64,000 bases of DNA, taken from the NCBI GenBank assembly GCA_035710845.1, contig DASTCT010000086.1:3067-67066 (forward strand), written 5' to 3'. Both the position numbers and the translations under genes were made by a program. The notes beneath the pieces were generated by a model. The model saw nothing but the letters and a program-made list of their open reading frames with translations. It was not told where the DNA came from and made no database searches. Shown here piece after piece: positions 4,218-58,510 of the stretch. Positions within the stretch are counted from its first letter, which is position 1; every line of letters starts with the position of its first letter. This DNA comes from Candidatus Angelobacter sp. (lineage in GTDB: Bacteria; Acidobacteriota; Terriglobia; Terriglobales; Acidobacteriaceae).

Positions 4218-6020
4218 CTAGTTTTTTGCCCGATGATCAATCACAGTGCGAATCTCCGCGCCGAACTTTTCCCTCATACGCTGCACTATTGGATCTTCCG
4301 CCGCACGGCTGCGCGCGCTGGCGCCGTTGTGCGGGCGAACAACCATAGTTGCGGATCCGTTAATTTCTTTTTTTGCGCCACCCACAATGTTGAGCTTTAA
4401 AGGATAACCTGCAGCCGCTGTGGCAGCAGCATTTGCAATTTGCCTCTGTTCCGCGTTGATCAGGAACTGCACAACCGATGCAGGCTGAGAGATAGTCACA
4501 ACCAGCTCACTTCCCTGAATGGCAACGGTTCCCTCAGACAAAGTAGCTATGAGGTTACCGGCTGTTGGGGTTTTCTCTAAAGCGTCAAGCACCCGGCCCA
4601 GGATCACACCGGGATCGCTGCTTCGCTCCGGCTCTTCCACAGCAACGGCCACCGCTGTTGCTGTTGTCTGAGAGTGGGCCTGTGTCTCGGTGGAGAGCTC
4701 CGGATCAAAGCTCCGGCCTTTGCGTGCGCGATCAGCCTCAAACGGGGAAATATAATCTTGCTTTGGCGCTGGGCCTCCCCCCACAGGCACACTAGCCGAT
4801 GAAGGTGTGGAAGAGCGCGTTATTGTAGGTTGCGGCAACGCTGGGCTTTTCTGCGGGGCAGCTTTTGGCGCTTCGCCGGCCACTGAGCTGAGTATCTGTT
4901 CCAGCGGGATCATGCGTTGCGCGTGGACCAGCTTCAATACGCCCAGTTCCAGATGGAAACGCTGCTCCTGCCGATACCCAAGCTCATCAAAGGTGCGCAA
5001 CATGATTTGCAAAAAGCGTGCCAAATCTTCTTCAGAAAATTGTTCTGCAACGCGGCCTACCCGCGCACGCTCATCAGAAGAGATCTGCAGAAGCGGAGAA
5101 TCGGCCCCAGCAACTTTTGCTACAACAGCATTGCGTAAAAAGCGGACAAGTTGCCTGGCAAAATGCGCTGGGTTGTGACCCTCGGTCATCAGCCGATCCA
5201 GCAGGCGAAGGGCTTCGTCGCTGGAGCTGCGCGCCACAGTGCCCATCAATTCTTCCAAAACTTCTGAACCAACGTTCCCTACCAGCCCACGCACCAACTC
5301 ACCACTGAGTTTTGAGCCGCAGCAGGCGATAGCCTGGTCCATGATGGAGAGCGCGTCGCGCATGGAGCCATCTCCGGCCTCAGACAGGACAGCGAGGGCT
5401 TCTTCATCGGCCTGAATATTTTCTTTGCCCGCGATCTCTCGCAACTGGCCTACGATCTCATCAAATTTCACGGCGTGAAAGCTGAAGTGCTGGCAGCGCG
5501 AGCGGATGGTCTGAGGAATGTCCTCTGCCTGCGTGGTGGCCATCATAAAGATGATGTGCGGCGGAGGTTCTTCCAGCGTTTTGAGCAGCGCGTTGAAGGC
5601 TGCGTCAGTAATCTGGTGGGCTTCATCGAGAATATAAATTTTGTAGCGGTCGCGGGCGGGCCGGTAGCGGGCAGCATCGCGCAATTCGCGAATCTCGTCA
5701 ATGCCGCGATTAGTAGCAGCATCGATTTCGATCACATCCACAGAGCTGCCGGCTCGAATCTCAACGCAGGATGCACATACACCACAAGGTTCGGGCGTAG
5801 GTTTGTCAGCGTTGCCGTCAACCCCACGGCAATTCAGCGACATGGCCAGGATGCGGGCTATCGTGGTCTTACCGATCCCGCGATGGCCGCTAAAGATATA
5901 GCCATGAGCAATCCGCTGCTGCTCAATGGCATTCTTGAGCGTGCGGGTGACGTGCTCCTGCCCAATCACCTGAGAAAAGCGCTGGGGACGGTATTTACGG
6001 GCTAGAACCTGATAGCTCAA
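4218..6020 (-). CDS. dnaX: DNA polymerase III subunit gamma/tau
   Basis: Walker A GHRGIGKTT, zinc module CGVCASC, DEAH box ILDEAH, SRC motif. Confidence 0.95.
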   Translation of the reverse strand: MSYQVLARKYRPQRFSQVIGQEHVTRTLKNAIEQQRIAHGYIFSGHRGIGKTTIARILAMSLNCRGVDGNADKPTPEPCGVCASCVEIRAGSSVDVIEIDAATNRGIDEIRELRDAARYRPARDRYKIYILDEAHQITDAAFNALLKTLEEPPPHIIFMMATTQAEDIPQTIRSRCQHFSFHAVKFDEIVGQLREIAGKENIQADEEALAVLSEAGDGSMRDALSIMDQAIACCGSKLSGELVRGLVGNVGSEVLEELMGTVARSSSDEALRLLDRLMTEGHNPAHFARQLVRFLRNAVVAKVAGADSPLLQISSDERARVGRVAEQFSEEDLARFLQIMLRTFDELGYRQEQRFHLELGVLKLVHAQRMIPLEQILSSVAGEAPKAAPQKSPALPQPTITRSSTPSSASVPVGGGPAPKQDYISPFEADRARKGRSFDPELSTETQAHSQTTATAVAVAVEEPERSSDPGVILGRVLDALEKTPTAGNLIATLSEGTVAIQGSELVVTISQPASVVQFLINAEQRQIANAAATAAAGYPLKLNIVGGAKKEINGSATMVVRPHNGASARSRAAEDPIVQRMREKFGAEIRTVIDHRAKN

Positions 6021-37341: not shown

Positions 37342-38070
37342 CTAGCTATGTGCTCCTGCAGCAACCCCTGCGGCTTCCATCGCGATCTCTTCAGTTGCGG
37401 TTGCGGCAAAGTAACGGCGATAGGAATATGACACTCCCAACATCACCAGCAGCAGCGCCACAAGAACCTGCCATCCGATATCGGATCCTAACGTCAAAGC
37501 CACGCCGGCAACTCCGGCACTTGCCACCAGGTAGACATAAGACAATTGGAACATGTCTACCCATGTCCGAACCAAACTGACTTTTTCCGTGAGCGAAATC
37601 ACCAGCGCCATGGTGACTGTGTTCACCAGGAAATAAACTGCTGCAGCAAACGCCAGCCGCAAAGCCTGTGATGCAATCCGCGACTCTATCATGGGCGACA
37701 CATAGATGAGCCGCGCTACAGCAACTGTCATCGCAATGGCGAAACAGTTAAATGCAAGCTGCAGCAGATTTAATTTTTGCCTTCTCCGCGGCAGGCATTG
37801 GACCAGGGTGCTGACAAAGCCTACGACCATTGCTTCGGCCGTCCCCAGCAGCGCAGCAGCCAGCAGAAAGAAGGGCAGATTTACTGACATGGTTCCGGTC
37901 AACCCAGGCAGCTTTACTTTAGGCCGCGCTGCCACAGTCGCCAGTACCAGGATCGCAATAAAGCGCGCCATTGCCACTGAGTGGACGTTGAGTACAGCGT
38001 TTCCCATGAGCAGGAAACCCGAAACGATAATCAACGCCACAAATATTCGCGCTGATAATGACTTCGGCAT
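37342..38070 (-). CDS. Stand-alone polytopic membrane module paralogous to the N-terminus of the HD-GYP/GGDEF protein
   Basis: Aligns with the 44301-46748 product: KVKLPGLTGTMSVNLPF..LVQCL vs KVDLPEITGTISVNFLF..LVQCL; AVYFLVNTVTMALVISLTEK vs AVYFLFNTLPVATIISLTEN; YSYRRYF vs RSYRLYL. Start lies 2 nt after the S8 gene stop. Confidence 0.7.
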   Translation of the reverse strand: MPKSLSARIFVALIIVSGFLLMGNAVLNVHSVAMARFIAILVLATVAARPKVKLPGLTGTMSVNLPFFLLAAALLGTAEAMVVGFVSTLVQCLPRRRQKLNLLQLAFNCFAIAMTVAVARLIYVSPMIESRIASQALRLAFAAAVYFLVNTVTMALVISLTEKVSLVRTWVDMFQLSYVYLVASAGVAGVALTLGSDIGWQVLVALLLVMLGVSYSYRRYFAATATEEIAMEAAGVAAGAHS

Positions 38071-38072
38071 GC

Positions 38073-39827
38073 TTAGTCTTCTCCGTCTTCCCCGTCGCTC
38101 AGGGCGTTGATGCCATCCGAGCCCCAGGTAATCGAATTGCACCAGATAATGCTGTTTCCGGTGATGCCGGTCTGTCCCCAGACGATTGAGTTACCCCAAA
38201 CAATGGAGTCTGAGATCACCGCGTTTCCGCCCCACACAATAGAGTTACCCCAAACAATGGAGCTACCCCAGGTGATGCTGTTTCCCCAGGTGATTGATTG
38301 GCTGTTCTGCAGCGTAGCCGTTCCGGTAGCCGAATTGAACTTAACAATGGGTGAAGGCGCTCCGCCATTTACCACGTCAGTGCTTTTCAGCGCAGCGTCA
38401 ACATCCAGATATCCGGCGCCGATGGTAAATACGTCATATTGTGATAAATAACCATATCCCTTGGTGTCATATCCCCAGCTGTTGACGGGATATCCCTTCC
38501 ACGCGGTCTTCATCATTCGCGCTTTAATGGTGTCAGGCGTAAGCGTTGGATCTTTTTGGACCATCAGCGCTGCCGCACCGGCAACGATGGGTGTTGCCAT
38601 GCTTGTGCCGCTAAGTCGGAGATATTTCCCGCTAGCTCCTGTGGTGCAATTATTCAAAACGCAGGTTGTGATGGGCAGAATATTCAGATTCAGCAATGAG
38701 GAAAACAGCGTGCTGCCCGGTGAAGACAGTGAAACGATGCGATTGCCGGGCGCAACCAGGTCAGGCTTAGCCACGTGATCGAGCAGCGTTGGGCCTTTGG
38801 AGCTATAGCTGGCCACAGTGTCATCAAGACGGGTGGGAGTGCCATTGGTTTTGGTAGCGCCCACCGTAATCACATTGGGATCATTACCCGGCGCATTAAT
38901 GGTGGCATATCCTTGCGTCCCGTAAGAATTATCGCGTCCGGCGTTGCCGGCGGCCACAACTACCACGATCCCGGAGTTCCACGCGGCTTCCACAGCCTGG
39001 CATACAGGATCAAGAGCGTAAGACTCAAAAATCGGCCGGCCCAGCGAGAGATTGATGACGCGAATGTTGTAGGTGTTCTTCAACTGGATCGCGCGCTGAA
39101 TGGCCGCGATTACCTGGCTATCCGTCCCCATACCGTTAGCATCAAGCACGCGCAGGTTAATGATGTTGGCATTAGAAGCGACGCCAATATATTGCACAGG
39201 ATAGCCTCTCTGTGAATCGTGGCCGTTCCCTGCCAGAATTCCAGCTACATGCGTGCCATGCCCATACGCGTCGTTTGTGCTGGTATCGCCGGGAATAAAG
39301 CTTTCGCTATAAACAATTCGTGAGCCGGTGCCATTCGCATTCTGCAGGTCGTCATGGTTAAAGACGCCGCTATCGATGATCGCAATGCCAACTCCGGTGC
39401 CGTCCAGACCATATTGCTGGCGGGCAACATCATCCATGACCGCAGGAATATCGTCATCAGACGCAACTTTGTTCGGGCGGTCCGGGCTTACATAGACAAC
39501 GTCAGGATGGTTCTCCAGCCACGCAAGCACTTTGACGGGAATGCGATAAGCCAGAGCATTAATGCGGTCCAGAGAGAACTTCATCCGCCCGCCGCGCGCC
39601 GCTAAATCGGCAAAATGCTGCGCTTTGGGAGTCTGATTGAACTGAATGATTACATTCACCGTTCCGTCAGGATTGACTGGAAAATTAGACAAATCGGCGG
39701 CAAGCTTTCCATGTCCGCGTGCGTGGGCCGCCGCGGGAACCACCGCAAGGACCAACGCCAGCGCAAGAAGATGGAAGAGCCACTTCAGTTTGTGTCGTGT
39801 TGTTAAATCTTGTTTGTCCGATATCAT
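38073..39827 (-). CDS. Secreted subtilisin-like serine protease (S8) with C-terminal hexapeptide-repeat tail
   Basis: Catalytic triad contexts AIIDSGV, HGTHVAG and GTSMATP. Signal peptide. Inhibitor_I9-like propeptide. Confidence 0.9.
   Translation of the reverse strand: MISDKQDLTTRHKLKWLFHLLALALVLAVVPAAAHARGHGKLAADLSNFPVNPDGTVNVIIQFNQTPKAQHFADLAARGGRMKFSLDRINALAYRIPVKVLAWLENHPDVVYVSPDRPNKVASDDDIPAVMDDVARQQYGLDGTGVGIAIIDSGVFNHDDLQNANGTGSRIVYSESFIPGDTSTNDAYGHGTHVAGILAGNGHDSQRGYPVQYIGVASNANIINLRVLDANGMGTDSQVIAAIQRAIQLKNTYNIRVINLSLGRPIFESYALDPVCQAVEAAWNSGIVVVVAAGNAGRDNSYGTQGYATINAPGNDPNVITVGATKTNGTPTRLDDTVASYSSKGPTLLDHVAKPDLVAPGNRIVSLSSPGSTLFSSLLNLNILPITTCVLNNCTTGASGKYLRLSGTSMATPIVAGAAALMVQKDPTLTPDTIKARMMKTAWKGYPVNSWGYDTKGYGYLSQYDVFTIGAGYLDVDAALKSTDVVNGGAPSPIVKFNSATGTATLQNSQSITWGNSITWGSSIVWGNSIVWGGNAVISDSIVWGNSIVWGQTGITGNSIIWCNSITWGSDGINALSDGEDGED
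38121..38297 (-). repeat. About 10 tandem 18-bp coding repeats (SI[TV]WG[NS])
   Basis: SITWGN SITWGS SIVWGN SIVWGG NAVISD SIVWGN SIVWGQ TGITGN SIIWCN SITWG. Confidence 0.9.
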
Positions 39828-39935
39828 TTAGAACCCCGGAAGTTACTTTCAAACTTTTACTCACAGCCGTTTGCTTCTTATGAACCCCAAACCGCTGACC
39901 TGAAAGACATTGGTCGAACCTCCGCTGCCTTTTAG

Positions 39936-39951
39936 TGCAATCCTGAAACCA
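39936..39951 (-). promoter_or_regulatory. Candidate sigma-54 (-24/-12) promoter for the S8/7TM operon
   Basis: Minus strand reads TGGTTTCAGGATTGCA. GG and TTGCA sit at consensus spacing (TGGCAC-N5-TTGCA). Confidence 0.45.
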
Positions 39952-39965
39952 AAGCAGCCGAAATG

Positions 39966-39978
39966 TAAGTTATTGATT
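39966..39978 (-). promoter_or_regulatory. IHF-like site
   Basis: Minus strand reads AATCAATAACTTA, matching WATCAANNNNTTR. Lies between the repeat cluster and the -24/-12 element. Confidence 0.35.
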
Positions 39979-40013: not shown

Positions 40014-40116
40014 TGTGACAGGGATGTCAGCCAGAGTGACAGCAAAACTAGAGCAGTTTTAGCGTAACATGTTGCAAATAAAAGGCTTATTCATTATTGC
40101 GACAGGTGTGACAGCC
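40014..40116. promoter_or_regulatory. Cluster of TGTGACA-type repeats (candidate enhancer/UAS)
   Basis: tgtgacaggg (40014), gatgtcagcc (40023), agtgacagc (40035), gcgacagg (40099), tgtgacagcc (40107). Confidence 0.4.
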
Positions 40117-40217: not shown

Positions 40218-41024
40218 TTACAAGTGGAGTGCTTCTTCAATTTCAACCGGACTTGGGATCGAGGGCAAAGCTGCAATCAGCTTTTGCGTAAATTCATGCT
40301 GTGGGCTAAAGAAGATGGCTTGAGGCTGGTTGCACTCAACAATTGCGCCATTGTGGATAAGAGCAATACGGTGGCATAGCCCATACGCCGAGAGCAGGTC
40401 GTGGGAGATGAAAAGCAGGCTCATCCCCAGCTTGCGGTTTAAGTCAGCAAACAGTGCCAGGATCTCTGCCTGTGTAACTGCATCAAGAGCGCTTGTCGGC
40501 TCGTCTGCAATCAATAATGCGGGCCGGTGCAAGATGGCCATGGCTATCAATACGCGCTGCGCCTGCCCCACACTGATCTCAGAAGGATAGCGGCGGAGAA
40601 ACTCTTCTGTTGCCGGCAAGCTTGTATCCATCAAGGCGCGAAAGATCGCTTCTTCTTTGTGCTGCTTGCTGCCGTTGCCATGTAGCTTCCACGCTTCTTC
40701 CAATTGCGTGCTTAACCGCAACGCTGGATTCAGCGATGACATGGGGCTTTGAGGCACAAAAGCGATTTCCTTGCCCCGCAAGCTGCGCCACTCGCGTTCT
40801 TTAAGAGTCAGCAGTTCGCGCCCGTTCCAGCGAATCGAGCCACGCGCCTTGCCGCCTTTCAGGTTCAGCAATCCAAGGATCGCCAACGCCAGCGAGCTTT
40901 TTCCGCAGCCGCTGTGCCCTACCAGACCCAGCACCTCTCCGGCTTGCAACTCAAGGCGCAAGTCGTCCAGCACGGGCGGCTTGTCCTTGTAGCTGATCGT
41001 CAATTGGAGCGAGAGCAGGTCCAT
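40218..41024 (-). CDS. ABC transporter ATP-binding protein (peptide/nickel type)
   Basis: Walker A GHSGCGKSS, signature ISVGQAQRV, Walker B LLIADEPTSALD. Confidence 0.9.
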   Translation of the reverse strand: MDLLSLQLTISYKDKPPVLDDLRLELQAGEVLGLVGHSGCGKSSLALAILGLLNLKGGKARGSIRWNGRELLTLKEREWRSLRGKEIAFVPQSPMSSLNPALRLSTQLEEAWKLHGNGSKQHKEEAIFRALMDTSLPATEEFLRRYPSEISVGQAQRVLIAMAILHRPALLIADEPTSALDAVTQAEILALFADLNRKLGMSLLFISHDLLSAYGLCHRIALIHNGAIVECNQPQAIFFSPQHEFTQKLIAALPSIPSPVEIEEALHL

Positions 41025-41029
41025 AAATT

Positions 41030-42637
41030 CTAGTGCGCCTTTGCCAGCGCCAATGTCTCCACGTTCCAGAACGTTTGCGGGCGAAATACGCTTGGCTCGC
41101 TGTTCTTTACTTCAGGCGAGATAGCTACCAGCGCGTCTTTGTTGATCAGATAGATGAACGGCTCCTGGTCCCACGCAATCTGCTGGACGCGGTCCCAATA
41201 TTGTTTGCGCTTATGCTCGTCGCCAGATGAAGCCTGGGCTTTCATCAGCTTGTCGATCTCGGCTTCCCATGCTGTTGCAGGCGATTTCTGCCGCGGATTC
41301 CACTGGTGGTTATCCGCCGAGCTGAGCCACACCGCCATTTGCGCATTGGGGTCCAGATCAACATTCTGGAAGCCCAGCAAACAAGCCTCATAGTTAAAGC
41401 TTTGCGTCATCCGCTCCAGCAATGAATTGAAATCAAGCGTGACCACATTCACCTTGATCCCGATTTTCTTGAGGTCTTCCTGGATCATGGTGGCCATGCT
41501 TTCACGCGAGCGATTGCCTGCATTGGTCACGATGGAAAATTCCACAGCGTTATCGCTCTTATCGCGCAGCGTGCCATCTTGCAGCCGGAAACCATCCTGC
41601 TGCAGCCGATGGAGAGCGCTGGCGGTATCGTAAGGATGCGGTTTGAGATTGCTGTTAAACCAGAACTTGTTGCTGGGCGAGACAACGCCAATCGCCGGGA
41701 CGGCGTGGCCGTGATAAACAATCCGCGCCAGGTCCGCCCGATTGATGGCTTCAGAGATCGCCCGACGGAAATTAGTGGAAGTAAACCACGCTAGCTTATA
41801 TGCCGGAATCGGCGCGCTAGGCACTTGGTTGAACCAGAGTTGCTCCGTATCAGTGGAAGCTCCGGCATCGCGAACGGAAGCGCTATCGCTGGAGAGCTTC
41901 TCAAAGATTGCTGGTGAAACAGTGTTGATCAGTTGAACTTCACCACGCTTATAACGCATGGCCTCGATTTCAGGGTTTTGCTCAATTTCCAGCCGGACTG
42001 AGTCCAGATACGGCAACTGCTTCCCTGTCGAGTCTTTTTTCCAATAGTAAGGATTGCGCTTCAGCAGAATATAGGAGCCGGCCTTACGCTCAGCCACATA
42101 GAACGGTCCTAATGCGGCCATTTCCTTTTGCGGCGATTTTGCAGATAGGATGGCGACTGTATCAAACAGGTCCACCAGGTTCGCTACCGGTGCGGGAAAA
42201 CTGATTTCCACCACGCTGGGCGAAATCACTCGCGTCTCTACCTTGCCTTCACCAGATCGGAATGCATCACCGGTGCTGGAATGCAGCGCTGGATCCATCA
42301 ACTGTGACATCGTGTAAGCTACGTCCGCAGCAGAAAACGGTGTGCCATCAGAATATTTCAGGCCTTCGCGTAGCTTAAAGCGAATGCGCTTGCCGCCTTC
42401 AGAAACCTTCCATTCGCTGGCTAATTCCGGCTGCGGCTTCAGCGTGATTCGGTTCACACGCACCAGCACGCCGCCGGTCAGATAACGGATCGTCTCAGAA
42501 GCATCGTCTTCCACCAGCAGCGGATTATATGTTTTAGGTTCAGCGCGTAGACAGAAACGCAGTTCTCCCCCAGTTTGGGCCAGCAGCGTAGTGCAACCCA
42601 GCAGCAACATCGCAGAGAGCAAATGCAGACGCCTCAT
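41030..42637 (-). CDS. ABC substrate-binding protein, family 5 (oligo/dipeptide-type), lipoprotein
   Basis: Lipobox LLLGC. About 535 aa with family-5 SBP layout (NPLL..DAS, YTMSQLMDP..). Confidence 0.88.
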   Translation of the reverse strand: MRRLHLLSAMLLLGCTTLLAQTGGELRFCLRAEPKTYNPLLVEDDASETIRYLTGGVLVRVNRITLKPQPELASEWKVSEGGKRIRFKLREGLKYSDGTPFSAADVAYTMSQLMDPALHSSTGDAFRSGEGKVETRVISPSVVEISFPAPVANLVDLFDTVAILSAKSPQKEMAALGPFYVAERKAGSYILLKRNPYYWKKDSTGKQLPYLDSVRLEIEQNPEIEAMRYKRGEVQLINTVSPAIFEKLSSDSASVRDAGASTDTEQLWFNQVPSAPIPAYKLAWFTSTNFRRAISEAINRADLARIVYHGHAVPAIGVVSPSNKFWFNSNLKPHPYDTASALHRLQQDGFRLQDGTLRDKSDNAVEFSIVTNAGNRSRESMATMIQEDLKKIGIKVNVVTLDFNSLLERMTQSFNYEACLLGFQNVDLDPNAQMAVWLSSADNHQWNPRQKSPATAWEAEIDKLMKAQASSGDEHKRKQYWDRVQQIAWDQEPFIYLINKDALVAISPEVKNSEPSVFRPQTFWNVETLALAKAH

Positions 42638-43440
42638 ACGCGGACCTCCTGTTTGTTAAGCAGTACCTGGAAGGAGCTGATTACCACTATAAGTACCGCA
42701 AAAGGCAACAATCGCCAAGGTTCCGGACGTAACGTAATCGCGTCCTGAAGTTCACGTAAAAGGCTGCCCAGCGAGGGCAATGGTTCTGACACCCCAAGGC
42801 CCAAAGCGCCCAGATTGGCTTCGGCAATAATGAAAACGGGAATCGAGATCCAGAACTGGGCCAACAATGCGCCGCGAAGGTTGGGCAGTAGGTGCAGACG
42901 AATCAATTTAAAGCCGGAAAAACCTGCGGCTCGCGCCATCCATACGAATTCTGATTTCATCAGATCTTTGGCGCCGGAACAGATGATCCGCGCGGAAGCC
43001 GCCCATCCCAGCAAGCCAAGGAGAATAAAAGTAACCATGACGGAAGCCTGGGGCGAAATATTCAGCGGGAGTACCGCTCGCACTGTAATCAGGAGAAACA
43101 GCCAGGGCACGGAGAGAAAGAAATCAATCAGCAGCTTGCAGCAGCGTTCAATCCAGCCGCCACAATATCCGGCAATGCCGCCTACCAAGCCTGCCAGAAT
43201 CGTTGTAAAGAATGCCGCTAAAGGGGCCAGCGTCAAGGAAACGCGCATTCCGAAAAGCAGTCTTGCCCAGCGATCGCGGCCCAAATCATCTGTCCCCAAC
43301 GGATGGTGCACAGAAGGGCCGGCCTGCGGCAGGTCGCGAAACTGCTGTTCATATCCTGCAGGCGCAAGGTAGTTGGCGAACAGCACAACGAATGCCGTTA
43401 CCAGCAGCACTGCAATCGCTATGAAGCGCACGGTTTTCAT
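42634..43440 (-). CDS. ABC permease (DppC/OppC-like)
   Basis: N-terminal HPLGTDDLGRD motif and EAA-type loop. 4-nt overlaps with both neighbours. Confidence 0.9.
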   Translation of the reverse strand: MKTVRFIAIAVLLVTAFVVLFANYLAPAGYEQQFRDLPQAGPSVHHPLGTDDLGRDRWARLLFGMRVSLTLAPLAAFFTTILAGLVGGIAGYCGGWIERCCKLLIDFFLSVPWLFLLITVRAVLPLNISPQASVMVTFILLGLLGWAASARIICSGAKDLMKSEFVWMARAAGFSGFKLIRLHLLPNLRGALLAQFWISIPVFIIAEANLGALGLGVSEPLPSLGSLLRELQDAITLRPEPWRLLPFAVLIVVISSFQVLLNKQEVRV

Positions 43441-44300
43441 GCCGCACTCCGGGTGAAGCCGCGTTGAGCCCCATCAGAGATCAGGGTGGCGCAAACCGTC
43501 ACAAAAGTCACAATCATGGTGAGGTTCACCAGTAGAGGCAGGTCGCGTGCCTCGGCGGCTTGCCAAGCAAGCTGCCCAATGCCAGCAACGTCGCTGATAA
43601 CCTCAATCGGCAGCAGCACGCCAATGCTAATGCTGATAGAAACGCCGACCAACGCAATCAACTGAGGCAAGGCAATTGGCGCAACGTGCCAGGCTAAAAC
43701 GCGCAGGGGACCAGCGCCTTTGGCCCGTGCCGTGAGCACATGTGGCATTTCCGCGCTCTGCTGAAGAAGGTTTTCTGTATAGCGATAAATCTTAGGGAAA
43801 ACCAGCAAGGCAGCCGCGAATGCTGGTGGCAGTCGTAATAAAAGAAAGACCAGCGCAAGCGCAGCTGCAGGAGTGGAGATGAATGTTCCACTCAGGCCAT
43901 TGGCCAGGAAACTAAATGCGCGCCAGCGCAAAACCTGTGTGGCGATGGCCAATGCAAGCCCCAGCAGCCACCCGATCGCCAGCGCAAACGCCAAATTTGG
44001 AAGTGTTACCGGCAGCCGTTCACGCAAAAGTTCTTTTACCGGCTGATTGAGAGAACTTGAAGTGCCAAAATCGCCCTTAGCTAGCGAGATGAGGTATTGC
44101 ACATAGAACCGTGGAATATTCGCATCGGCTAAACGGGCCTGCCGAATGGCCTGGATACTCTGGGCAGAAAGGCTGGGATTAAGTTCCTGATCGTCAGAGG
44201 TAAAACCGGGAGCAATGCGTATGAGCATGGCGCCCGCAAAGCTCGCCATGAGCATAAGCGCCGCCAGCCGAAGCACAGCGCCGCTGAGAAAGCGCAGCAT
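43437..44300 (-). CDS. ABC permease (DppB/OppB-like)
   Basis: Six TM helices. TARAKG motif of the binding-protein-dependent permease loop. Confidence 0.9.
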   Translation of the reverse strand: MLRFLSGAVLRLAALMLMASFAGAMLIRIAPGFTSDDQELNPSLSAQSIQAIRQARLADANIPRFYVQYLISLAKGDFGTSSSLNQPVKELLRERLPVTLPNLAFALAIGWLLGLALAIATQVLRWRAFSFLANGLSGTFISTPAAALALVFLLLRLPPAFAAALLVFPKIYRYTENLLQQSAEMPHVLTARAKGAGPLRVLAWHVAPIALPQLIALVGVSISISIGVLLPIEVISDVAGIGQLAWQAAEARDLPLLVNLTMIVTFVTVCATLISDGAQRGFTRSAA

Positions 44301-46748
44301 TTATCCTGCCACCGCGTCACGGACGCCGTTGGATTTACGCGGTTCCGGCAGCGAATTGAAGCCTTTCAGTATCCGGTGATGTTCCTGCTTCTGTATGTAC
44401 ATGCGGCGATCTGCTTCTGCCAGCAGCTTTTCCGCATCTACCCCATCATCCGGATAAATGGCACATCCAACGCTCAGGCTAAGCCATTCCACGCCGCAAA
44501 TCTCACGTCCAGCGTTGCCGGCCAATTCGCTCAGGCAGATTCCGCGCGCTTCTGCCGCAGCGGAGCTTAGACCGGGCGCAACAATCACAAATTCATCGCC
44601 ACCCATGCGGGCGGTGTAATCGTACTCACGGCAGGATCCCTGCAAGGTCTCGGCAAAATGGCGCAAAATCCGGTTACCTTCAAGGTGGCCAAAGCGATCA
44701 TTGATCTTCTTGAAACCATCAAGGTCACATACCATCACTGTTAATGAACTTTGCAGGCGTTTGCAGCGAGCCAATTCACGGTCCAAATGCAGGAACAACG
44801 AGCGTGCATTCGGAAGCTCTGTGAGGTAATCGGTTGTAGCCGAGCTTTCGGCTTCCTGGAAGGCCAGCGCGTTCTCCACTGAAAGCGCGACTTTTGAACT
44901 AATGGCCAGCAGAATACGCAGATGGTCAGCCGTATATGCGTCCTGATCGCTGTGGTAGAGCGTTAGCACGCCAACCACGCCTTGCAAACCTTCCAATGGA
45001 ACAGAGATGGCAGACCGCAACGCGCTGAAGCGATTAGGATCGGGCTCGTAACCATGCTCCAGTGCCGGGTTCCCATTCAGCATGGGCTTGCGATTCTGGG
45101 CTACCCATCCGGACAAGCCTTCGCCCACCGGGATACGCAGAGCCGCAAACAGACGGAAGTTATCGCCACTCACAAACTCCGGCAGTAATTCGGGGCCCCG
45201 CACAATGTAAGTTGCAATCGCGTCATACGGAACCAGCCGTTTTAAGCGTCCGCTGAGCACAGAGAGCGTGTCACTTAAGCTTAAAGAATTGCCCAGGTCC
45301 TGCGTTAACTCAAAAAGGGTCTGCGCTTCCTGGCGGGCTGCGGCAATCGACGAAAGGAACGCCGCCTGATTATTGGGCTCGACGCTCTTGGCCGCTTCAA
45401 ATCCGCTGGCGGGCGCTTTGCCGGGCGCAACTTTCAGATCGGTAGAAAGCCTATGGCGATCCGGCACCAGCGACTGCATGTGCACAATTTCTTCCAGCTC
45501 CCTATAGTTTGTCTGCAGCATCGCGACCACTTTGGGGTCATAAGCCTTGCCGGCCTGATCAGCCACCCACTGCATGGCATCATCCAGCGGCAGCGCCTTG
45601 CGATATTGGCGATCTGTGGCTAAGGCATCAAGGCAATCGACGGCAGAAAGGATCCTGGCGCCAATGGGGATTTCTTCGCCCTTCAGCCCGGCTGGGTATC
45701 CCGCACCATCCCACCGCTCGTGGTGGCAGCGGACGATCGGCACCACTGGATAGGGAAAATGCACCCGCTCCAGGATTTCTGCACCCACAATGGGGTGGAT
45801 CTTCATTTTCTCGAACTCTTCCGGCGTCAACCGTCCGGGCTTGGAGAGAATATGCTCCGGCACAGCCAGCTTACCAATGTCATGGAGCAGGGCTGCGGCG
45901 CGCAGAGCTTCAATTTCATCCGGAGAAAGATTAAGCTTCTTCGCCAATTCCACAGCGTAAACGCGTACGCGCTCAAGGTGATCGTGCGTGGTCTGGTCCT
46001 TGGCTTCAATGGCCAGAGCAAGCGCCTCAATCGTGCGCATGTGCAAAGCCGCCATCTCTGCCACATGGTTCTTCTCATTCGCCAGCTTGCCCAGATAAAG
46101 CCGGTAAGACCGGTAGATGATGAACATTGCAGGCAGTGCCAGTAATGTCGGTTGCCATCCCACTTTCTGGTTGACCCACCCAAACATCGCGGCAATCGCG
46201 CCACCGGCCAGATAATAAGGCAGCGACCAGAAATAGCAATCCGTCCATATCTTTCGCAGGTTCTTATTTTCAGTGAGCGAAATAATGGTAGCCACCGGCA
46301 GCGTATTAAAGAGAAAATAAACAGCGGCTGAAAGCATCAGCAACAACGCGCTGTTCGAATGCAAATAGGCGTTCAGCGGCCCATGATATGTGAAGTAAGC
46401 TGCCCAAATGGCAACCGCCGCGCTGGAGATGTTAAAGAATACCTGTTCCGGTCGCGGCAAGCGGCGCCCTGTAAGCAGGCACTGCACCAGGATAGCGGAA
46501 CAGCCCAGCACCAACGTCCCGCTGAACGTCAACTCGGCAATTCCAATGAGAATAAATAAGAAGTTGACTGAAATTGTCCCGGTAATCTCCGGCAGATCAA
46601 CTTTCAGTCGCGAGGCCAGCAGGGCAGTAAGCACATAAGCAGCAAACTTGGACGCATTGTCGATCCTCCACACCAGTCCGCCATAGACGGCGGTCACAAG
46701 ACCGGCCATGCAGACGATGAAAAGGAATATACGGGCCTGCTTCGACAT
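44301..46748 (-). CDS. Multidomain c-di-GMP protein: 7TM module, HD-GYP phosphodiesterase, GAF, GGDEF cyclase with I-site
   Basis: HD..LHDIGK..HHERWDGAGYP (HD-GYP). GAF-like GEGLSGWVAQNRKP. DLDGFKKINDRFGH and RMGGDEFVIV. REYD lies 5 residues before GGDEF (RxxD I-site). ATG at 46748 preceded by GGAGG. Stop abuts the permease start. Confidence 0.9.
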   Translation of the reverse strand: MSKQARIFLFIVCMAGLVTAVYGGLVWRIDNASKFAAYVLTALLASRLKVDLPEITGTISVNFLFILIGIAELTFSGTLVLGCSAILVQCLLTGRRLPRPEQVFFNISSAAVAIWAAYFTYHGPLNAYLHSNSALLLMLSAAVYFLFNTLPVATIISLTENKNLRKIWTDCYFWSLPYYLAGGAIAAMFGWVNQKVGWQPTLLALPAMFIIYRSYRLYLGKLANEKNHVAEMAALHMRTIEALALAIEAKDQTTHDHLERVRVYAVELAKKLNLSPDEIEALRAAALLHDIGKLAVPEHILSKPGRLTPEEFEKMKIHPIVGAEILERVHFPYPVVPIVRCHHERWDGAGYPAGLKGEEIPIGARILSAVDCLDALATDRQYRKALPLDDAMQWVADQAGKAYDPKVVAMLQTNYRELEEIVHMQSLVPDRHRLSTDLKVAPGKAPASGFEAAKSVEPNNQAAFLSSIAAARQEAQTLFELTQDLGNSLSLSDTLSVLSGRLKRLVPYDAIATYIVRGPELLPEFVSGDNFRLFAALRIPVGEGLSGWVAQNRKPMLNGNPALEHGYEPDPNRFSALRSAISVPLEGLQGVVGVLTLYHSDQDAYTADHLRILLAISSKVALSVENALAFQEAESSATTDYLTELPNARSLFLHLDRELARCKRLQSSLTVMVCDLDGFKKINDRFGHLEGNRILRHFAETLQGSCREYDYTARMGGDEFVIVAPGLSSAAAEARGICLSELAGNAGREICGVEWLSLSVGCAIYPDDGVDAEKLLAEADRRMYIQKQEHHRILKGFNSLPEPRKSNGVRDAVAG

Positions 46749-46779: not shown

Positions 46780-46795
46780 GGCAACTACCTGGCCA
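46780..46795 (-). promoter_or_regulatory. Candidate sigma-54 (-24/-12) promoter for the HD-GYP/GGDEF-ABC operon
   Basis: Minus strand reads TGGCCAGGTAGTTGCC, with GG and GC at consensus spacing. Lies 32-47 nt upstream of the ATG at 46748. Confidence 0.45.
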
Positions 46796-46844: not shown

Positions 46845-46897
46845 CATCTGCGGTCGGCGAGAGCTTGGGTAATACCACCTATCTGGCTGCGACACAT

Positions 46898-46938
46898 TTG
46901 TCACAGGGTGCCTTTATGGCTCATGTCAAATTGTCACA
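46898..46938. promoter_or_regulatory. Two TTGTCACA repeats 33 bp apart (candidate enhancer/UAS)
   Basis: tttgtcacaggg at 46897 and attgtcacaagg at 46930. The TGTNACA core is palindromic and matches the 40.0-40.1 kb cluster. Confidence 0.4.
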
Positions 46939-47062: not shown

Positions 47063-48460
47063 ATGCGGGTGCTTACCGATTGCCCGGACATGCCCATTTG
47101 CTCCATCATGGCCAGTAACGGGTTGTACTTTAGGGTGCTTAAGGAGAAAGTTTTTTTGTCGACGCTCGTTCACAACTCATGTGACCTTAGCGGTCAGGTT
47201 GTCCGCAGTGATGCCCTGAAGCGGGTCATGAAGCTGGTTGAGCAAGTGGCGTGTCATCCTGCAGCAGTGCTGATTGTAGGTGAAACCGGCACTGGCAAGG
47301 AGATGATTGCACGCTCCATCCACGCCCGTTCCCTGCGCTGCAACAAGCCCTGGGTTGACGTAAATTGCGCCGCGATTCCTGAACATTTGGTGGAAAGCGA
47401 GCTTTTTGGTTATGAAAAAGGCGCGTTCAGCGGAGCAGATACCCAGAAGGCCGGCTATTTTGAAATGGCTGATGGCGGCACGTTGTTCCTGGACGAAATT
47501 GGTGATCTTGACCCACGTGTGCAAGTAAAACTGCTGCGTGTGCTCGATGGCGCTCCTTATTTTCGCCTGGGTGGAAGCAAAAAAGTTGAAGTGGACGTCC
47601 GCGTAGTGGCAGCCACAAACCAAAATCTGGAAGAGTTGGTTCGCTCCGGGCGGTTCCGCAATGATCTTTATCACCGGCTGGCGGAATTCAAGCTTGAAAT
47701 CCCGCCGCTGCGAGAAAGACCGGAAGATTTGCTGGCCATCGCCGAGCAAATCCTGCATCAGCATTATCCTGACTCGCGCTATTCCCAGGACGCAGTGACT
47801 GCATTGCTTACTTATGAATGGCCAGGCAACGTGCGCGAGTTACGCAATGCCATATTTCGCGCCGTGATGTTGGCAAAGAACGCGTCTGTTGAGATTACCG
47901 CGGCTGATTTGAAATTGACCCAGGTGATCCAGCCGACTAATGGCAAAGCTCCTCTCAGCCAAGACCTGGACCAGTTGGAGCGACAGATTGTATTTGACAC
48001 CTTGGAACGCTGCGGGGGCAACCAGGGCAAGGCAGCGCAAGCGCTGGGCATTTCCCGGCGAACACTCCTGCGCAAACTCAAGACCTATCGCGAAGCCGGG
48101 CCGGATGCTGGTGGTGAGTGGTGCGTAGAGCGCTACTATCGCAAACAAATCAACACGCCCATCCGCCTGAAAATGGCTGACGAATGGATGGACGCTACGC
48201 TGCTGAATATCAGCCTCGGTGGAGCAGCGATCTCCATCCACAAGCTCCTTGGCCAAGGCTCGCTGGTAACAATCAGCCTCAGCATTCCTGAAAGCGATGC
48301 CAAAGCGGAGATCACCGGACGCATTGCCTGGGCGAACAAAGAAGGCCATCACGGAATCCAGTTTGGCGATCTTTCTTCTGAAGTCAGCGCTCAATTGCAA
48401 CGCTGGTTTAAGGCAGAGATGAAAAAAGACGGTTGGGACGAAGAGCTGGAAGCGGAATAA
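47063..48460 (+). CDS. Sigma-54-dependent enhancer-binding protein lacking an N-terminal sensor domain, with a C-terminal PilZ-like domain
   Basis: AAA+ Walker A GETGTGKE, GAFSGA loop (GAFTGA variant), Walker B LFLDEIGD, Fis-type HTH AAQALGISRRTLLRKLK. Then about 100 aa with ERYYRKQ...(22 aa)...NISLGG (PilZ DxSxxG-type motif). Likely true start is the TTG at 47156 (AAGGAG 9 nt upstream). Confidence 0.85.
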   Translation: MRVLTDCPDMPICSIMASNGLYFRVLKEKVFLSTLVHNSCDLSGQVVRSDALKRVMKLVEQVACHPAAVLIVGETGTGKEMIARSIHARSLRCNKPWVDVNCAAIPEHLVESELFGYEKGAFSGADTQKAGYFEMADGGTLFLDEIGDLDPRVQVKLLRVLDGAPYFRLGGSKKVEVDVRVVAATNQNLEELVRSGRFRNDLYHRLAEFKLEIPPLRERPEDLLAIAEQILHQHYPDSRYSQDAVTALLTYEWPGNVRELRNAIFRAVMLAKNASVEITAADLKLTQVIQPTNGKAPLSQDLDQLERQIVFDTLERCGGNQGKAAQALGISRRTLLRKLKTYREAGPDAGGEWCVERYYRKQINTPIRLKMADEWMDATLLNISLGGAAISIHKLLGQGSLVTISLSIPESDAKAEITGRIAWANKEGHHGIQFGDLSSEVSAQLQRWFKAEMKKDGWDEELEAE

Positions 48461-49486: not shown

Positions 49487-51052
49487 CTAGACTCCTGTCC
49501 CCTTAAACACCGCGGGAATCGTGCGCAAAAGGATTTTAAAATCCAGGCCTAGACTCCAATTTTCTATGTACTCCAGGTCGAGAGCAATATAGTTGTCGAA
49601 CGAGGGATCTTGGCGGCAGGTGATCTGCCACAGACCGGTAATGCCAGGGACAACATCCAAACGCCTGAGATGGTCAAGGCGATATTGCTTGAACTCGCTG
49701 GGCAAAGGTGGCCGTGGTCCCACCAGGCTCATATCGCCCTTAAGTACGTTGATTAGCTGAGGTACTTCGTCCAGGCTGAACTTGCGCAGCACCCGGCCAA
49801 CTCGCGTAATCCGCGGATCGTTGGCGACTTTAAAGAGTACAGAGTTGCGCTCGTTGCTCTCTTCCAGATTCGTTTTAAGTCCGTCAGCCCCCTTGACCAT
49901 GGTTCTAAACTTATAGAAGGTGAAGAGCCTGCCCTTCTTTCCTACCCGGTGTGAGCGATAAAACACCGGCCCTCTTGACTCCAGTTTGAGCAGTATTGCG
50001 ATAAGAAGGAATACAGGCGACAAGACCAGCAGCAATAGCCCGGCCATTATCACGTCGCAGATTCGCTTTAGCATCCAACCAGTGGCCGGAATCGGCTCGC
50101 GATGCAGCACGCGTACAGGCAAGTGCGCCAGGTATTCAACGGGAGCATTCACAGCAAAGCCGTCATACAGTTCCGGTACCACCTTTACATCCAAACGCAG
50201 CCCGCGAGCCTGCAATGCTACTTTCTTCACCAGTTCGCGCTGGGATGGAATCGTAACCACCACTTCATCGATAAAGTATTGCCGGGCAATTTCAGGGAGA
50301 TCGGCAAACGATCCCAACACCTGAGAATCGTCCTTGCGATGGTCATCCAGAAAACCAATCACGCGATATCCCGGATTCTGCTTAAGGTGTTGCGCCAGTT
50401 CCATTCCTACAGCTCCTGCACCAACAATGAGCACATTCGTCATCTGCTCATCCCGTACGCGAGCGCGTCTTACATAGATGCGGCGCAGCACGTGCCGTCC
50501 GGCAAACGCCACAATCGTTACTCCGGCAGTGAAGAAAAGCGTGGAACGTGTGTTTTTACCTGTATCTGCAATGTAAAAAAACGCTGCCATAGCCATGGCT
50601 GCCGTTAAAGCAGCCTTCATTGCGGCCAATGCAGTATCAATAATTGGAAGCTGGCTCTGGTACAAGCGGTAATGATTCGCGCGCGCCAGAACCAGGCACG
50701 CATAGATAGCCACTACCGCCCATTGATGAAAGAACATTTCGTGGATATTGATCCACGCGGCGATAGTGGGCACTCCGCTATGGCTGCGGAATATATATGC
50801 ACCACCGATAACGATGATCAGGAGGAAATCCAGTACCGCCGCAAGACCAGAAGATTGTGCTCTTCTGCTTTGGGCCACAAGCGCCAAGCGTGCTTTCTCT
50901 GCCTTGCGACGTGCAGGTAAAGCTCTTGCCAAGGCCCCATCTGCCGGCCGCAATGGCGCGGTTCTTTCTGTAGCTTCTTCCTTACTGCTAACTTTCAAGA
51001 CTGCCCCCTGCCATAGGACTTGGCCGTGGGAACCCCTCTTGCCGAAATTCAC
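49487..51052 (-). CDS. Exopolysaccharide priming polyprenyl-phosphate sugar phosphotransferase (WbaP/EpsB-like)
   Basis: N-terminal TM helices, Rossmann-like VLIVGAGAVG, C-terminal bacterial sugar transferase motifs (FKFRTM, DEVPQLINVLKGDMSLVGPRP). GTG start uncertain. Confidence 0.85.
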   Translation of the reverse strand: MNFGKRGSHGQVLWQGAVLKVSSKEEATERTAPLRPADGALARALPARRKAEKARLALVAQSRRAQSSGLAAVLDFLLIIVIGGAYIFRSHSGVPTIAAWINIHEMFFHQWAVVAIYACLVLARANHYRLYQSQLPIIDTALAAMKAALTAAMAMAAFFYIADTGKNTRSTLFFTAGVTIVAFAGRHVLRRIYVRRARVRDEQMTNVLIVGAGAVGMELAQHLKQNPGYRVIGFLDDHRKDDSQVLGSFADLPEIARQYFIDEVVVTIPSQRELVKKVALQARGLRLDVKVVPELYDGFAVNAPVEYLAHLPVRVLHREPIPATGWMLKRICDVIMAGLLLLVLSPVFLLIAILLKLESRGPVFYRSHRVGKKGRLFTFYKFRTMVKGADGLKTNLEESNERNSVLFKVANDPRITRVGRVLRKFSLDEVPQLINVLKGDMSLVGPRPPLPSEFKQYRLDHLRRLDVVPGITGLWQITCRQDPSFDNYIALDLEYIENWSLGLDFKILLRTIPAVFKGTGV

Positions 51053-51142
51053 ACTTCTTCAGTCCCTACTACTATATAGTGACGCCCCCGCGCCGGGCGT
51101 TTCTTTTCACTCTTCTTTTTCTTACAAATCTGCTAAGGCTGG

Positions 51143-56085: not shown

Positions 56086-56087
56086 CG

Positions 56088-56843: not shown

Positions 56844-56913
56844 GTTTTATCCTTTTTGTAATTGTTGACGCGCGAATTTCCGAGCCTTGCAACTTCCATG
56901 AAGCGCAGCCTCG

Positions 56914-58449: not shown

Positions 58450-58510
58450 ACTGAATTAAATCTGAGCTTTCGTTAGCTACCTCGTGTCTCTTTCAAAAGC
58501 ACTTCATCAA

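Follow-up and report, generated by a model that had tools for sequence, protein, structure and literature searches.

The question raised by this locus is whether a sigma-54 enhancer-binding protein (EBP) could be controlled by a PilZ domain attached behind its DNA-binding region. PilZ is the most widespread c-di-GMP receptor domain, and the EBPs known to respond to this messenger (FleQ, FlrA, VpsR, and Nla24) sense it via their AAA+ or receiver parts; to our knowledge, PilZ control of a sigma-54 activator has not been shown so far, and we know of essentially no study of how Acidobacteriota, a phylum dominant in soil, use c-di-GMP for signalling. The gene, here called EBP-PilZ, is carried by Candidatus Angelobacter sp. 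(assembly GCA_035710845.1, contig DASTCT010000086.1, positions 3,067-67,066 of the forward strand), and this whole stretch of 64,000 nt is referred to as the window. The explanation that we favour, with moderate confidence, is that of a sigma-54 EBP whose sole candidate regulatory module is a PilZ barrel flexibly tethered behind a Fis-type HTH; that the protein is a functional EBP is predicted as part of this same explanation.

An open reading frame spanning 47063..48460 of the forward strand is present in the window, and would encode 465 amino acids if read from the ATG at 47063. This longer frame is probably not used, however, and translation is predicted to start as follows:

47156..48460, forward strand: EBP-PilZ gene, 434 amino acids, TTG start (start of a homologue, orthologue lengths, 20-locus alignment)
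47141..47146, forward strand: ribosome-binding site (AAGGAG), 9 nt ahead of the TTG (GGAG block kept in the alignment)

The same TTG and AAGGAG had been proposed in a preliminary description of this DNA, and three lines of evidence now back that choice: homologue P0001 (94% identical) starts with MSTLVHN... at exactly this codon, the orthologues are mostly 434-436 amino acids long, and in the alignment of 20 loci the TTG or GTG and the ribosome-binding site are kept, the region upstream of the start being variable and non-coding.

The protein enters its catalytic core almost at once, and the domains preceding the tail are these:

47201..47695, forward strand: Sigma54_activat AAA+ core (Pfam PF00158, 226.7 bits against a cut-off of 20.2)
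47279-47302, forward strand: Walker A, GETGTGKE, within the AAA+ core
47420-47437, forward strand: GAFSGA loop, the sigma-54 contact of the GAFTGA type, within the AAA+ core
47711..47914, forward strand: AAA+ lid domain AAA_lid_14 (Pfam)
47966..48088, forward strand: Fis-type HTH_8 DNA-binding domain, ORF residues 302-342 (Pfam, 49.9 bits)

Walker A is followed by a generic KExxARxIH segment, Walker B reads LFLDEIG, and the T-to-S change in the GAFTGA loop is found in 9 of 11 full-length representatives of the family. AlphaFold (AF2) models the AAA+ core with a pLDDT of 86-96, and Foldseek aligns it to 1ny6, 6luf, and 5exs with a TM(target) of 0.83-0.93, and at a TM of about 0.9 to the AAA+ domains of NtrC1, FlrC, and FleQ, with ZraR also matched. 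NCBIfam models found broad similarity to the PrsR, FlbD, NifA, NorR, and NtrC cores, and none of them reached its equivalog cut-off. The preliminary description had read the gene as a sigma-54 activator with GETGTGKE, a GAFSGA loop, a DNA-binding HTH before its tail, and no N-terminal sensor; Pfam, NCBIfam, and Foldseek agree with that identity, both motifs are in the sequence, and Pfam recognizes the HTH as HTH_8. As for the missing sensor, the Pfam match begins at ORF residue 47, which is residue 16 of the 434-residue protein, and in the AlphaFold model residues 1-12 are disordered and followed by the first AAA+ helix, placing the core about 15 residues in.

The domain that follows the HTH is the only candidate input module, and its position is given below:

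48089..48127, forward strand: flexible linker between HTH and barrel, variable in sequence, about 10 disordered residues, pLDDT below 50 (family alignment, AlphaFold)
48131..48409, forward strand: PilZ domain, six-stranded beta-barrel plus C-terminal helix (Pfam, AlphaFold, Foldseek)

PF07238 (PilZ) matches ORF residues 357-449 with 52.8 bits in the full protein and 53.4 bits when the tail is searched alone, against a cut-off of 22.5. Modelled by itself, the tail yields six strands and a helix (residues 91-107 in tail numbering) with a pLDDT of 90.9, and the best 49 matches that Foldseek returned from the PDB are all PilZ proteins, including Alg44 (TM 0.65-0.73), MapZ (TM 0.72-0.73, rmsd 2.1 A), MotI, BcsA, PlzD, YcgR, and MrkH. 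The kinship with PilZ structures was drawn from the family profile and from Foldseek, as phmmer with the single tail sequence was too weak a tool, and in PDB sequences found only noise (calmodulin) and weak matches to type-IV-pilus PilZ proteins. On these models a genuine PilZ barrel follows the HTH, as the preliminary description had supposed, rather than an EBP tail unrelated to PilZ. The full-length AlphaFold model has a pTM of 0.55, a figure that is uninformative on how the domains pack against one another. All of the 120 closest database clusters share the same domain set, with ERYYRKQ and NISLGGA essentially invariant among them, and because of this the tail signal is, as judged from these sequences, no chance match.

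Sensor-less EBPs such as PspF and HrpR/S do exist, and it could be argued that EBP-PilZ is simply another constitutively active activator of this kind, controlled in trans or by its own expression, with a vestigial PilZ tail. Like PspF, in fact, EBP-PilZ has its AAA+ core nearly at the N-terminus and no regulatory domain in cis on that side, and a GTGTGAC-N6-TGTCYCA palindrome conserved just upstream of the EBP start in most orthologues could provide autoregulation. PspF, however, is controlled in trans by PspA and stops at the HTH, whereas EBP-PilZ carries a further C-terminal domain. In 47 clusters at 50% identity this domain keeps its whole length and its invariant motif residues; a PAS-containing variant has it too, and it is predicted with very high confidence, while a vestigial domain would be expected to decay. 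We therefore regard this explanation as very improbable, and take the PilZ barrel as the candidate regulatory module in what follows.

The counterparts of the two canonical PilZ motifs are these:

48128..48145, forward strand: ERYYRK, degenerate counterpart of the RRxxxR switch loop, ORF residues 356-361 (alignments)
48206-48223, forward strand: NISLGG, the [D/N]hSxxG motif, ORF residues 382-387 (sequence, alignments)

The preliminary description had pointed to NISLGG lying some 22 residues from an Arg-rich element, with a degenerate first motif, and both observations hold: the spacing between R360 and N382 in ORF numbering is 22 residues, and the degeneracy is family-wide. When aligned with R8-R9-R10-F-H-R13 of PA4608 and with QRRQYVR of MotI, the loop keeps the last Arg alone, leaving RxxxR incomplete. 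This residue (R360 of the ORF, R329 of the protein) is the only Arg of ERYYRK invariant across the family; the first Arg of RxxxR is Gln in most members and Glu in the protein of the window, and the Arg preceding it is lost as well. Where canonical receptors have RRxxxR, the family has QQ(R/K)(Y/F)(Y/F)R, or more generally Q-Q-x-(Y/F)-(Y/F)-R, compared to E-R-Y-Y-R in the window. The family tails resemble PA4608/MapZ, the Alg44 PilZ domain, and MotI not only in their fold (TM 0.65-0.73) and C-terminal helix but in the N-h-S-x-x-G motif, whose N, S, and G are invariant, in the last Arg, and in an invariant Trp within GRIAWAN that aligns with W77 of PA4608. Characterized PilZ proteins lose binding when their motif Arg residues are mutated. 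Because the signature of the tail is only partly canonical, we consider c-di-GMP binding plausible.

A partly canonical signature would also suit a PilZ barrel that binds no nucleotide and serves for docking, either between proteins or within the molecule, so that the activator could be tethered to the MASE9-HD-GYP-GGDEF enzyme encoded next to it, or the AAA+ ring could be auto-inhibited. PilZ proteins PA2960 and XAC1133, for example, bind PilB and FimX. Several features are in line with docking. The first RxxxR Arg is absent family-wide, phmmer weakly matched the tail to PilZ proteins of type IV pili that do not bind the ligand, and the invariant C-terminal W...EGW helix, not being a canonical motif for ligands, could offer a surface for interactions. 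PilZ proteins of M. xanthus without the motifs, the EBP MXAN_2902 among them, likewise count as non-binders (PMC8844925). Known non-binding PilZ domains, however, lack both motifs, whereas this family keeps N-h-S-x-x-G together with the last Arg and a Trp equivalent to W77. These five ligand-contact positions of canonical PilZ (last Arg; N, S, and G; Trp) account for five of the seven invariant columns in tails that are only about 21-25% identical to each other and whose alignment holds no conserved stretch 7-10 columns long; the other two, a Gly and a Trp of the C-terminal helix, are not designated ligand contacts. In the Foldseek ranking, furthermore, XC1028 and PilZ come far below canonical PilZ structures with c-di-GMP bound. 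A docking module is, in our judgment, unlikely, although a serious contender. Alternatively, the barrel might recognize another small ligand, such as pGpG (the intermediate of HD-GYP or EAL activity), 3'3'-cGAMP, or another guanine nucleotide, with specificity set by the QQxYFR loop. The replacement of RR by QQ throughout the family, together with a conserved Y/F-Y/F pair before the Arg that is kept, suggests in fact a loop that was reshaped and yet selected, and the partner enzyme has an HD-GYP as well as a GGDEF domain. No PilZ domain with a different physiological ligand is known to us, and the papers searched, with other questions in view, offered none; we rate such a ligand as improbable.

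The favoured explanation, a PilZ barrel sensing c-di-GMP or a closely related nucleotide, also draws on the genes that surround EBP-PilZ:

44301..46748, reverse strand: MASE9-HD-GYP-GAF-GGDEF membrane protein, divergent from EBP-PilZ (domain search)
40218..44300, reverse strand: peptide-type ABC transporter with two BPD_transp_1 permeases, SBP_bac_5, and ABC_tran, directly downstream of the GGDEF gene
39878..39910, reverse strand: small ORF after promoter P2 (comparison of orthologues)
38073..39827, reverse strand: secreted S8 subtilase with C-terminal WGNSI(V/T)WG repeats, a conserved partner in the cluster
37342..38142, reverse strand: MASE9-only membrane protein, 266 amino acids

[quoted passage not shown] Distant members of the family, at about 44-48% identity, adjoin (MASE9-)HD-GYP-GAF-GGDEF and ABC permease genes in six of seven cases, a linkage that holds across three different gene arrangements. 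The HHERWDGAGYP, GGDEF, and RxxD I-site motifs of the divergent enzyme are all intact, and its gene is likely the first of an operon served by promoter P1. The small ORF has been shortened in the window to MSFRSAVWGS* through an in-frame deletion; its orthologues have about 50 amino acids and end in ASAVWG(S/G). A polysaccharide-type cluster downstream of EBP-PilZ (49487 onwards) was also considered as a regulon and dropped, being missing from the 80%-identical locus L001.

Two predicted sigma-54-type promoters and their upstream sites were located in the intergenic regions of this cluster:

46780..46795, reverse strand: promoter P1, TGGCCAGGTAGTTGCC, upstream of MASE9-HD-GYP-GAF-GGDEF, 33 nt from its ATG
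46888..46905, no strand assigned: palindrome TGCGACA-CATT-TGTCACA, resembling a UAS, some 100 bp upstream of P1 (conservation)
46932..46938, forward strand: a second TGTCACA site, lying some 140 bp upstream of P1 (conservation)
39936..39951, reverse strand: promoter P2, TGGTTTCAGGATTGCA, kept in 16/16 sequences
39966..39978, reverse strand: IHF-consensus-like AATCAATAACTTA, between the UAS and P2 (likeness to consensus)
40014..40020, reverse strand: conserved TGTC(A/G)CA site upstream of P2
40098..40113, reverse strand: UAS-like TGTCACACCTGTCGCA upstream of P2, which in orthologues reads TGTGACG-N4/5-TGTCGCA

[quoted passage not shown] The TGGC-N8-TTGC block of P1 is found in all 21 sequences compared (the window and 20 orthologous loci), and the IHF-like site (IHF consensus WATCAANNNNTTR) and upstream sites of P2 are, like P2 itself, kept in all 16. 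P1 and P2 each have 3 mismatches from TGGCAC-N5-TTGCW, and a scan of the whole window for this pattern revealed no enrichment (65 matches against 53 expected); because such matches are not enriched, the case for the two promoters is one of conservation only. The sole perfect match to the pattern, at 5008-5023, falls inside a 600-amino-acid ORF and was discarded as due to chance. A TGYGACA-type upstream motif is common to P1 and P2 and lies about 60-160 bp out, at classical enhancer distances. TGTCACA occurs eight times in the 64-kb window, and four of these copies sit in the two intergenic regions. A distant locus (L087) repeats the upstream motif, the -24/-12 element, and the small ORF. From proximity and co-conservation we infer that EBP-PilZ acts on these TGYGACA-type sites.

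The mechanism we envision is that EBP-PilZ would bind its upstream sites as an HTH dimer, or as an oligomer of higher order, and activate sigma-54 RNA polymerase at P1, for the c-di-GMP enzyme and the peptide importer operon, and at P2, for the small ORF, the subtilase, and the MASE9 protein. The PilZ domain would sense c-di-GMP, or else a guanine nucleotide closely related to it. ERYYRK, which corresponds to the switch loop, would itself be the linker between HTH and barrel, and the ligand could order this linker, with the barrel taking up a new position relative to the HTH or the AAA+ ring; by analogy with linker ordering in YcgR, PlzD, and BcsA, such movement might alter DNA binding or hexamer assembly. 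Since one target would be a c-di-GMP synthase/phosphodiesterase, the circuit could be a feedback loop on the messenger. [quoted passage not shown]

Comparison with known systems helps place this proposal. FleQ, FlrA, VpsR, and Nla24 (EpsI) share with EBP-PilZ an AAA+ sigma-54 domain followed by a Fis-type HTH (Foldseek TM of about 0.87 for the AAA+ domain of FleQ), and tie c-di-GMP to the transcription of surface or lifestyle genes; however, they receive it on the AAA+ or REC part, have N-terminal domains, and lack PilZ, whereas EBP-PilZ has its candidate sensor in a PilZ barrel of its own behind the HTH. Fusion behind an HTH also sets the domain apart from canonical PilZ receptors. MrkH of Klebsiella pneumoniae, a Foldseek match, does carry PilZ inside a DNA-binding transcription activator, but has no AAA+ or HTH, works with sigma-70 RNA polymerase, and has a canonical RxxxR; it contacts DNA through its PilZ and PilZN domains themselves (review PMC12564702). 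The architecture is not wholly unseen, given the 'PilZ' annotation of some members and MXAN_2902 of Myxococcus xanthus, an EBP with a PilZ domain and non-canonical motifs (PMC8316039), which was the only published mention of a PilZ-bearing EBP found in the literature searched. MXAN_2902 is a predicted non-binder of c-di-GMP with no deletion phenotype (PMC8316039, PMC8844925), and was reported to be without any conserved binding motif (PMC8844925); judged by that published description, the EBP-PilZ family differs in keeping [D/N]hSxxG along with the last Arg and the Trp, and belongs to a different phylum.

EBP-PilZ is a candidate for second-messenger control of sigma-54 transcription, because it stands beside its likely target promoters, one of them driving a c-di-GMP-making/-degrading enzyme, and has PilZ after its HTH. 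With its only candidate input domain behind the HTH, the family is a compact scaffold, free of a sensor, on which PilZ control can be tested, with a predicted regulon and operator motif already defined and a c-di-GMP synthase/phosphodiesterase among the predicted targets. It is also a natural experiment that asks if nucleotide can still be bound by a PilZ domain without the first RxxxR Arg.

With regard to distribution, the sensor-less AAA+-lid-HTH_8-PilZ arrangement defines an uncharacterized family, seen so far only in Acidobacteriota (Terriglobia), and the literature searched yielded no characterized member. Among the 80 related loci from the whole-protein search, 22 (including L001) have the PilZ tail, all from the Angelobacter/Terriglobia clade, and the remaining ones are ordinary EBPs. 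Standard annotation already tags some family members as 'PilZ'. Stand-alone HTH_8-PilZ proteins of 175-206 amino acids, which dominated the profile search, were considered as possible ancestors and rejected, as, of the two cases inspected, one is a truncation beside a transposase fragment (L089) and the other comes from a frameshift-ridden assembly (L090).

The reading frame at 47063..48460 (+) proved to be real, and encodes a sigma-54 enhancer-binding protein (EBP) that looks competent as an activator, lacks an N-terminal sensor and carries a PilZ domain of canonical fold after its helix-turn-helix, an architecture that we regard as nearly certain. Based on the sequence, translation most likely starts at the TTG at 47156, 9 nt downstream of AAGGAG, as the preliminary description had it. 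The 94%-identical homologue P0001 begins, in fact, at the equivalent codon (MSTLVHN...), most orthologues are 434-436 aa long, and when the regions ahead of the gene were aligned for 20 orthologous loci, the ribosome-binding site and a TTG or GTG were seen to be kept, with non-coding sequence farther upstream. GETGTGKE, DEIG, GAFSGA, ERYYRK and NISLGG all lie where they had been placed in the protein, and Pfam recognized the following domains (residues of the reading frame from 47063):

Residues 47-211: Sigma54_activat, 226.7 bits
In the same reading frame: AAA_lid_14
Residues 302-342: HTH_8, 49.9 bits
Residues 357-449: PilZ (PF07238), 52.8 bits (gathering score 22.5)

The full-length AlphaFold2 model, for which 63 family sequences were aligned (mean pLDDT 84), has 12 disordered N-terminal residues followed directly by the AAA+ core, in agreement with the claimed lack of a sensor, and then the lid and a three-helix HTH. 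Linker residues 316-322 (434-aa numbering) are disordered, and the C-terminal domain, predicted very confidently (pLDDT 92-96), folds into six beta-strands with a long helix at the C-terminus. Foldseek matched the whole model to the AAA+ domains of NtrC1, ZraR, FlrC, FleQ, LuxO, NifA and DmpR (TM(target) at most 0.93). The tail after HTH_8, which had been suspected of being a PilZ-like barrel, was also modelled alone (pLDDT 90.9, pTM 0.81), and its 49 best matches in the PDB were all PilZ proteins, therefore supporting that fold; these include Alg44, MapZ/PA4608 (TM 0.72-0.73, rmsd 2.1 A), MotI, BcsA, PlzD/VCA0042, PlzA, YcgR, PA0012 and MrkH. Structures of the non-binders XC1028 and PilZ ranked well under these 49.

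The signature of this barrel is canonical in part, and c-di-GMP binding is plausible: the window protein has [D/N]hSxxG and, as anticipated from its degenerate first motif, lacks RxxxR. When the family profile was aligned to MotI (5vx6) and PA4608 (sequence checked against 5xly_B), R329 (434-aa numbering, here and below) fell on R13 of PA4608, the last Arg of RxxxR, the family NxSxxG on D35-x-S37-x-x-G40, and W392 on W77; R8 and R9 of PA4608 are each replaced by Q in the family, and by a gap and E in the window protein. Loss of the first Arg makes binding less likely, and is also what one would expect if the domain were blind to nucleotides and served as an interaction or auto-inhibitory module, for which the PilZ-bearing EBP MXAN_2902 of Myxococcus xanthus offers a precedent (PMC8316039, PMC8844925). 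That the other ligand-contact residues are selectively invariant, however, argues for binding, because non-binding PilZ domains typically lose both motifs (Galperin & Chou, bioRxiv 10.1101/814665). We take c-di-GMP as a tentative ligand, with chances somewhat short of even; a different nucleotide is a further alternative.

ERYYRKQ and NISLGGA are nearly invariant in the 120 closest clusters (at least 76% identity), most of which have EQQRYYRKQ; the window protein lacks the QQ, as does its nearest relative. The HTH+PilZ tail, searched against 1.84 billion representatives, gave 1050 matches at E<=1e-3, of which 69 reached E<=1e-10; among the best 150 of the 1050, 47 clusters at 50% identity had HTH and PilZ in one stretch, and 11 of these were full length. 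Walker A lies at residue 42-46 in nine of the 11, which thus also lack a sensor, and all nine have GAFSGA. Although the tails of these clusters are about 21-25% identical to that of the window protein, R329, N351, S353, G356, W392, G400 and W417 are invariant, and it is this conservation that makes it unlikely that the tail is vestigial and the protein a constitutive activator like PspF.

The genes around the EBP-PilZ gene include conserved partners, with two conserved sigma-54-type promoters (P1 and P2) that share an upstream motif:

38073-39827 (-): secreted S8 subtilase, 584 aa, with GHGTHVAG, GTSMATP and about ten C-terminal WG(N/S)SI(V/T)WG repeats
39878-39910 (-): small ORF, MSFRSAVWGS then stop, after P2
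39951..39936 (-): P2, TGG(T/C)TT-N5-(T/G)TGCA, in 16/16 sequences
44301..46748 (-): MASE9-HD-GYP-GAF-GGDEF protein, divergent from EBP-PilZ, with HHERWDGAGYP, GGDEF and RxxD intact
46795..46780 (MASE9-gene strand): P1, TGGCC(C/A)-N5-TTGCC, 33 nt before a conserved ATG, in the window and 20/20 loci
46888-46905: conserved palindrome TGCGACA-N4-TGTCACA, about 100 bp upstream of P1
46932-46938: further conserved TGTCACA
49487-63570 (-): gene run with a Bac_transf priming sugar transferase, a beta-helix protein, an 852-aa protein and Acyl_transf_3

[quoted passage not shown] Of seven distant members (about 44-48% identity), six keep the partnership of the EBP with c-di-GMP-enzyme and ABC genes, in three arrangements: divergent (L082, L086, L088), separated by an inserted subtilase gene (L083, L087), or co-directional (L085). 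The exception is L084, whose EBP (P0186, 8001-9359) is divergent from glnA (glutamine synthetase) instead; P0186 has the most degenerate PilZ loop, TTYQR. The subtilase, whose orthologues in the loci compared have no Pfam match on record, remains a partner even with members of about 45% identity. The 49487-63570 run looks like a polysaccharide cluster (its 852-aa protein has no Pfam match), and its synteny is absent in L001, a locus of 80% identity, so that any relation to the EBP is improbable.

P1 and its upstream sites emerged when the EBP/MASE9 intergenic region of the window and 20 loci was subjected to phylogenetic footprinting. Upstream of the subtilase, all 16 sequences have, besides P2, TGTGACG-N4/5-TGTCGCA, a TGTC(A/G)CA site, an IHF-consensus match (AATCAATAACTTA), and a GGAGG ribosome-binding site with a small ORF ending ASAVWG(S/G); the distant L087 shows this layout again, its TGCGACA repeats being followed by a -24/-12 element, then by a small ORF with ASAVWGG at its end, and then by S8. 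Of the eight TGTCACA copies present in the 64-kb window, these two short intergenic regions contain four. Sigma-54-like matches were not enriched in a scan of the whole window, and the evidence for the promoters is therefore their conservation and the classical upstream-site/IHF/-24/-12 geometry. The sole perfect sigma-54 consensus in the window (TGGCACGCTTTTTGCA, 5008-5023, minus strand) was rejected as most likely a chance match inside a 600-aa ORF (4218..6020).

We propose that EBP-PilZ would bind the TGYGACA sites and activate P1 and P2, targets that we consider probable. Its barrel would bind c-di-GMP or a close relative, and ordering of the ERYYRK loop, as the HTH-barrel linker, would reposition the barrel and so modulate DNA binding or hexamer assembly; because P1 drives a c-di-GMP synthase/phosphodiesterase, the circuit would feed back on the messenger. 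Linker ordering modulates YcgR, PlzD and BcsA. EBP-PilZ would be alike in function to the c-di-GMP-responsive FleQ, FlrA, VpsR and Nla24, which, however, sense through AAA+ or REC domains, and to the PilZ transcription factor MrkH, which has neither an AAA+ domain nor an HTH, and it falls outside the mechanism class of both. No characterized example was found in the literature searched, but routine annotation already shows the combination (some JGI names, such as '.../Tfp pilus assembly protein PilZ' and 'Sigma-54 interaction domain/PilZ domain'). The protein is unsurprising in kind. As a candidate it is well defined and open to direct testing, complete with predicted operator, promoters and feedback partner.

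The window matches Candidatus Angelobacter sp. locus L002 at 94% identity, and the PilZ tail is present in L001-L022, all of them MAGs of Ca. Angelobacter, Terriglobia or Acidobacteriaceae; farther members bear the names Ca. Korobacteraceae or Terriglobales, and a non-exhaustive census saw none outside Acidobacteriota. A PAS-AAA+-HTH_8-PilZ variant (P0140, 613 aa, GAFTGA; L086 8001-9842) adjoins the same MASE9-HD-GYP-GAF-GGDEF and ABC operon, and its relatives made up the bulk of the profile-search matches. Short HTH_8-PilZ proteins (175-206 aa) were discarded as a separate architecture, both cases inspected being truncation artefacts: an IS (rve) fragment abuts the gene in L089 (5587-6528), and the assembly of L090 (194-6570) has HD-GYP, GGDEF and S8 genes split. 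The nearest non-EBP relatives of the tail are 460-1060-aa proteins with two or three PilZ domains (P0158, P0164, P0166, P0189 and others) and fully canonical ERRxxxR and N(I/V)SE(G/D)G. A C-terminal PilZ akin to the EBP tail also occurs in subtilase-like P0229, P0231, P0234, P0247 and P0267 (NNSWGG, 400-670 aa), which suggests a wider PilZ-protease association in these bacteria.

In most orthologues a palindrome, GTGTGAC-N6-TGTC(T/C)CA, lies just upstream of the EBP gene, about 70-90 nt before its start, and could be an autoregulatory operator; it is decayed in the window (about 47085-47110) and its closest relatives (GGACATGCCCATTTGCTCCA), and conserved blocks AAGCTGAAGGTTNGAGAACTTTAGTAATC and ATTGCC lie nearby. 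Orthologues of the small ORF are about 50 aa long (MSLRNKVVVF..AAIAGLGL...ASAVWGS then stop; L001-L022, and L087 4850-4960), and that of the window has an in-frame internal deletion that left its start and final six codons in place. The AVWG at the C-terminal end of the small ORF is similar to the C-terminal WGNSI(V/T)WG repeats of the subtilase.
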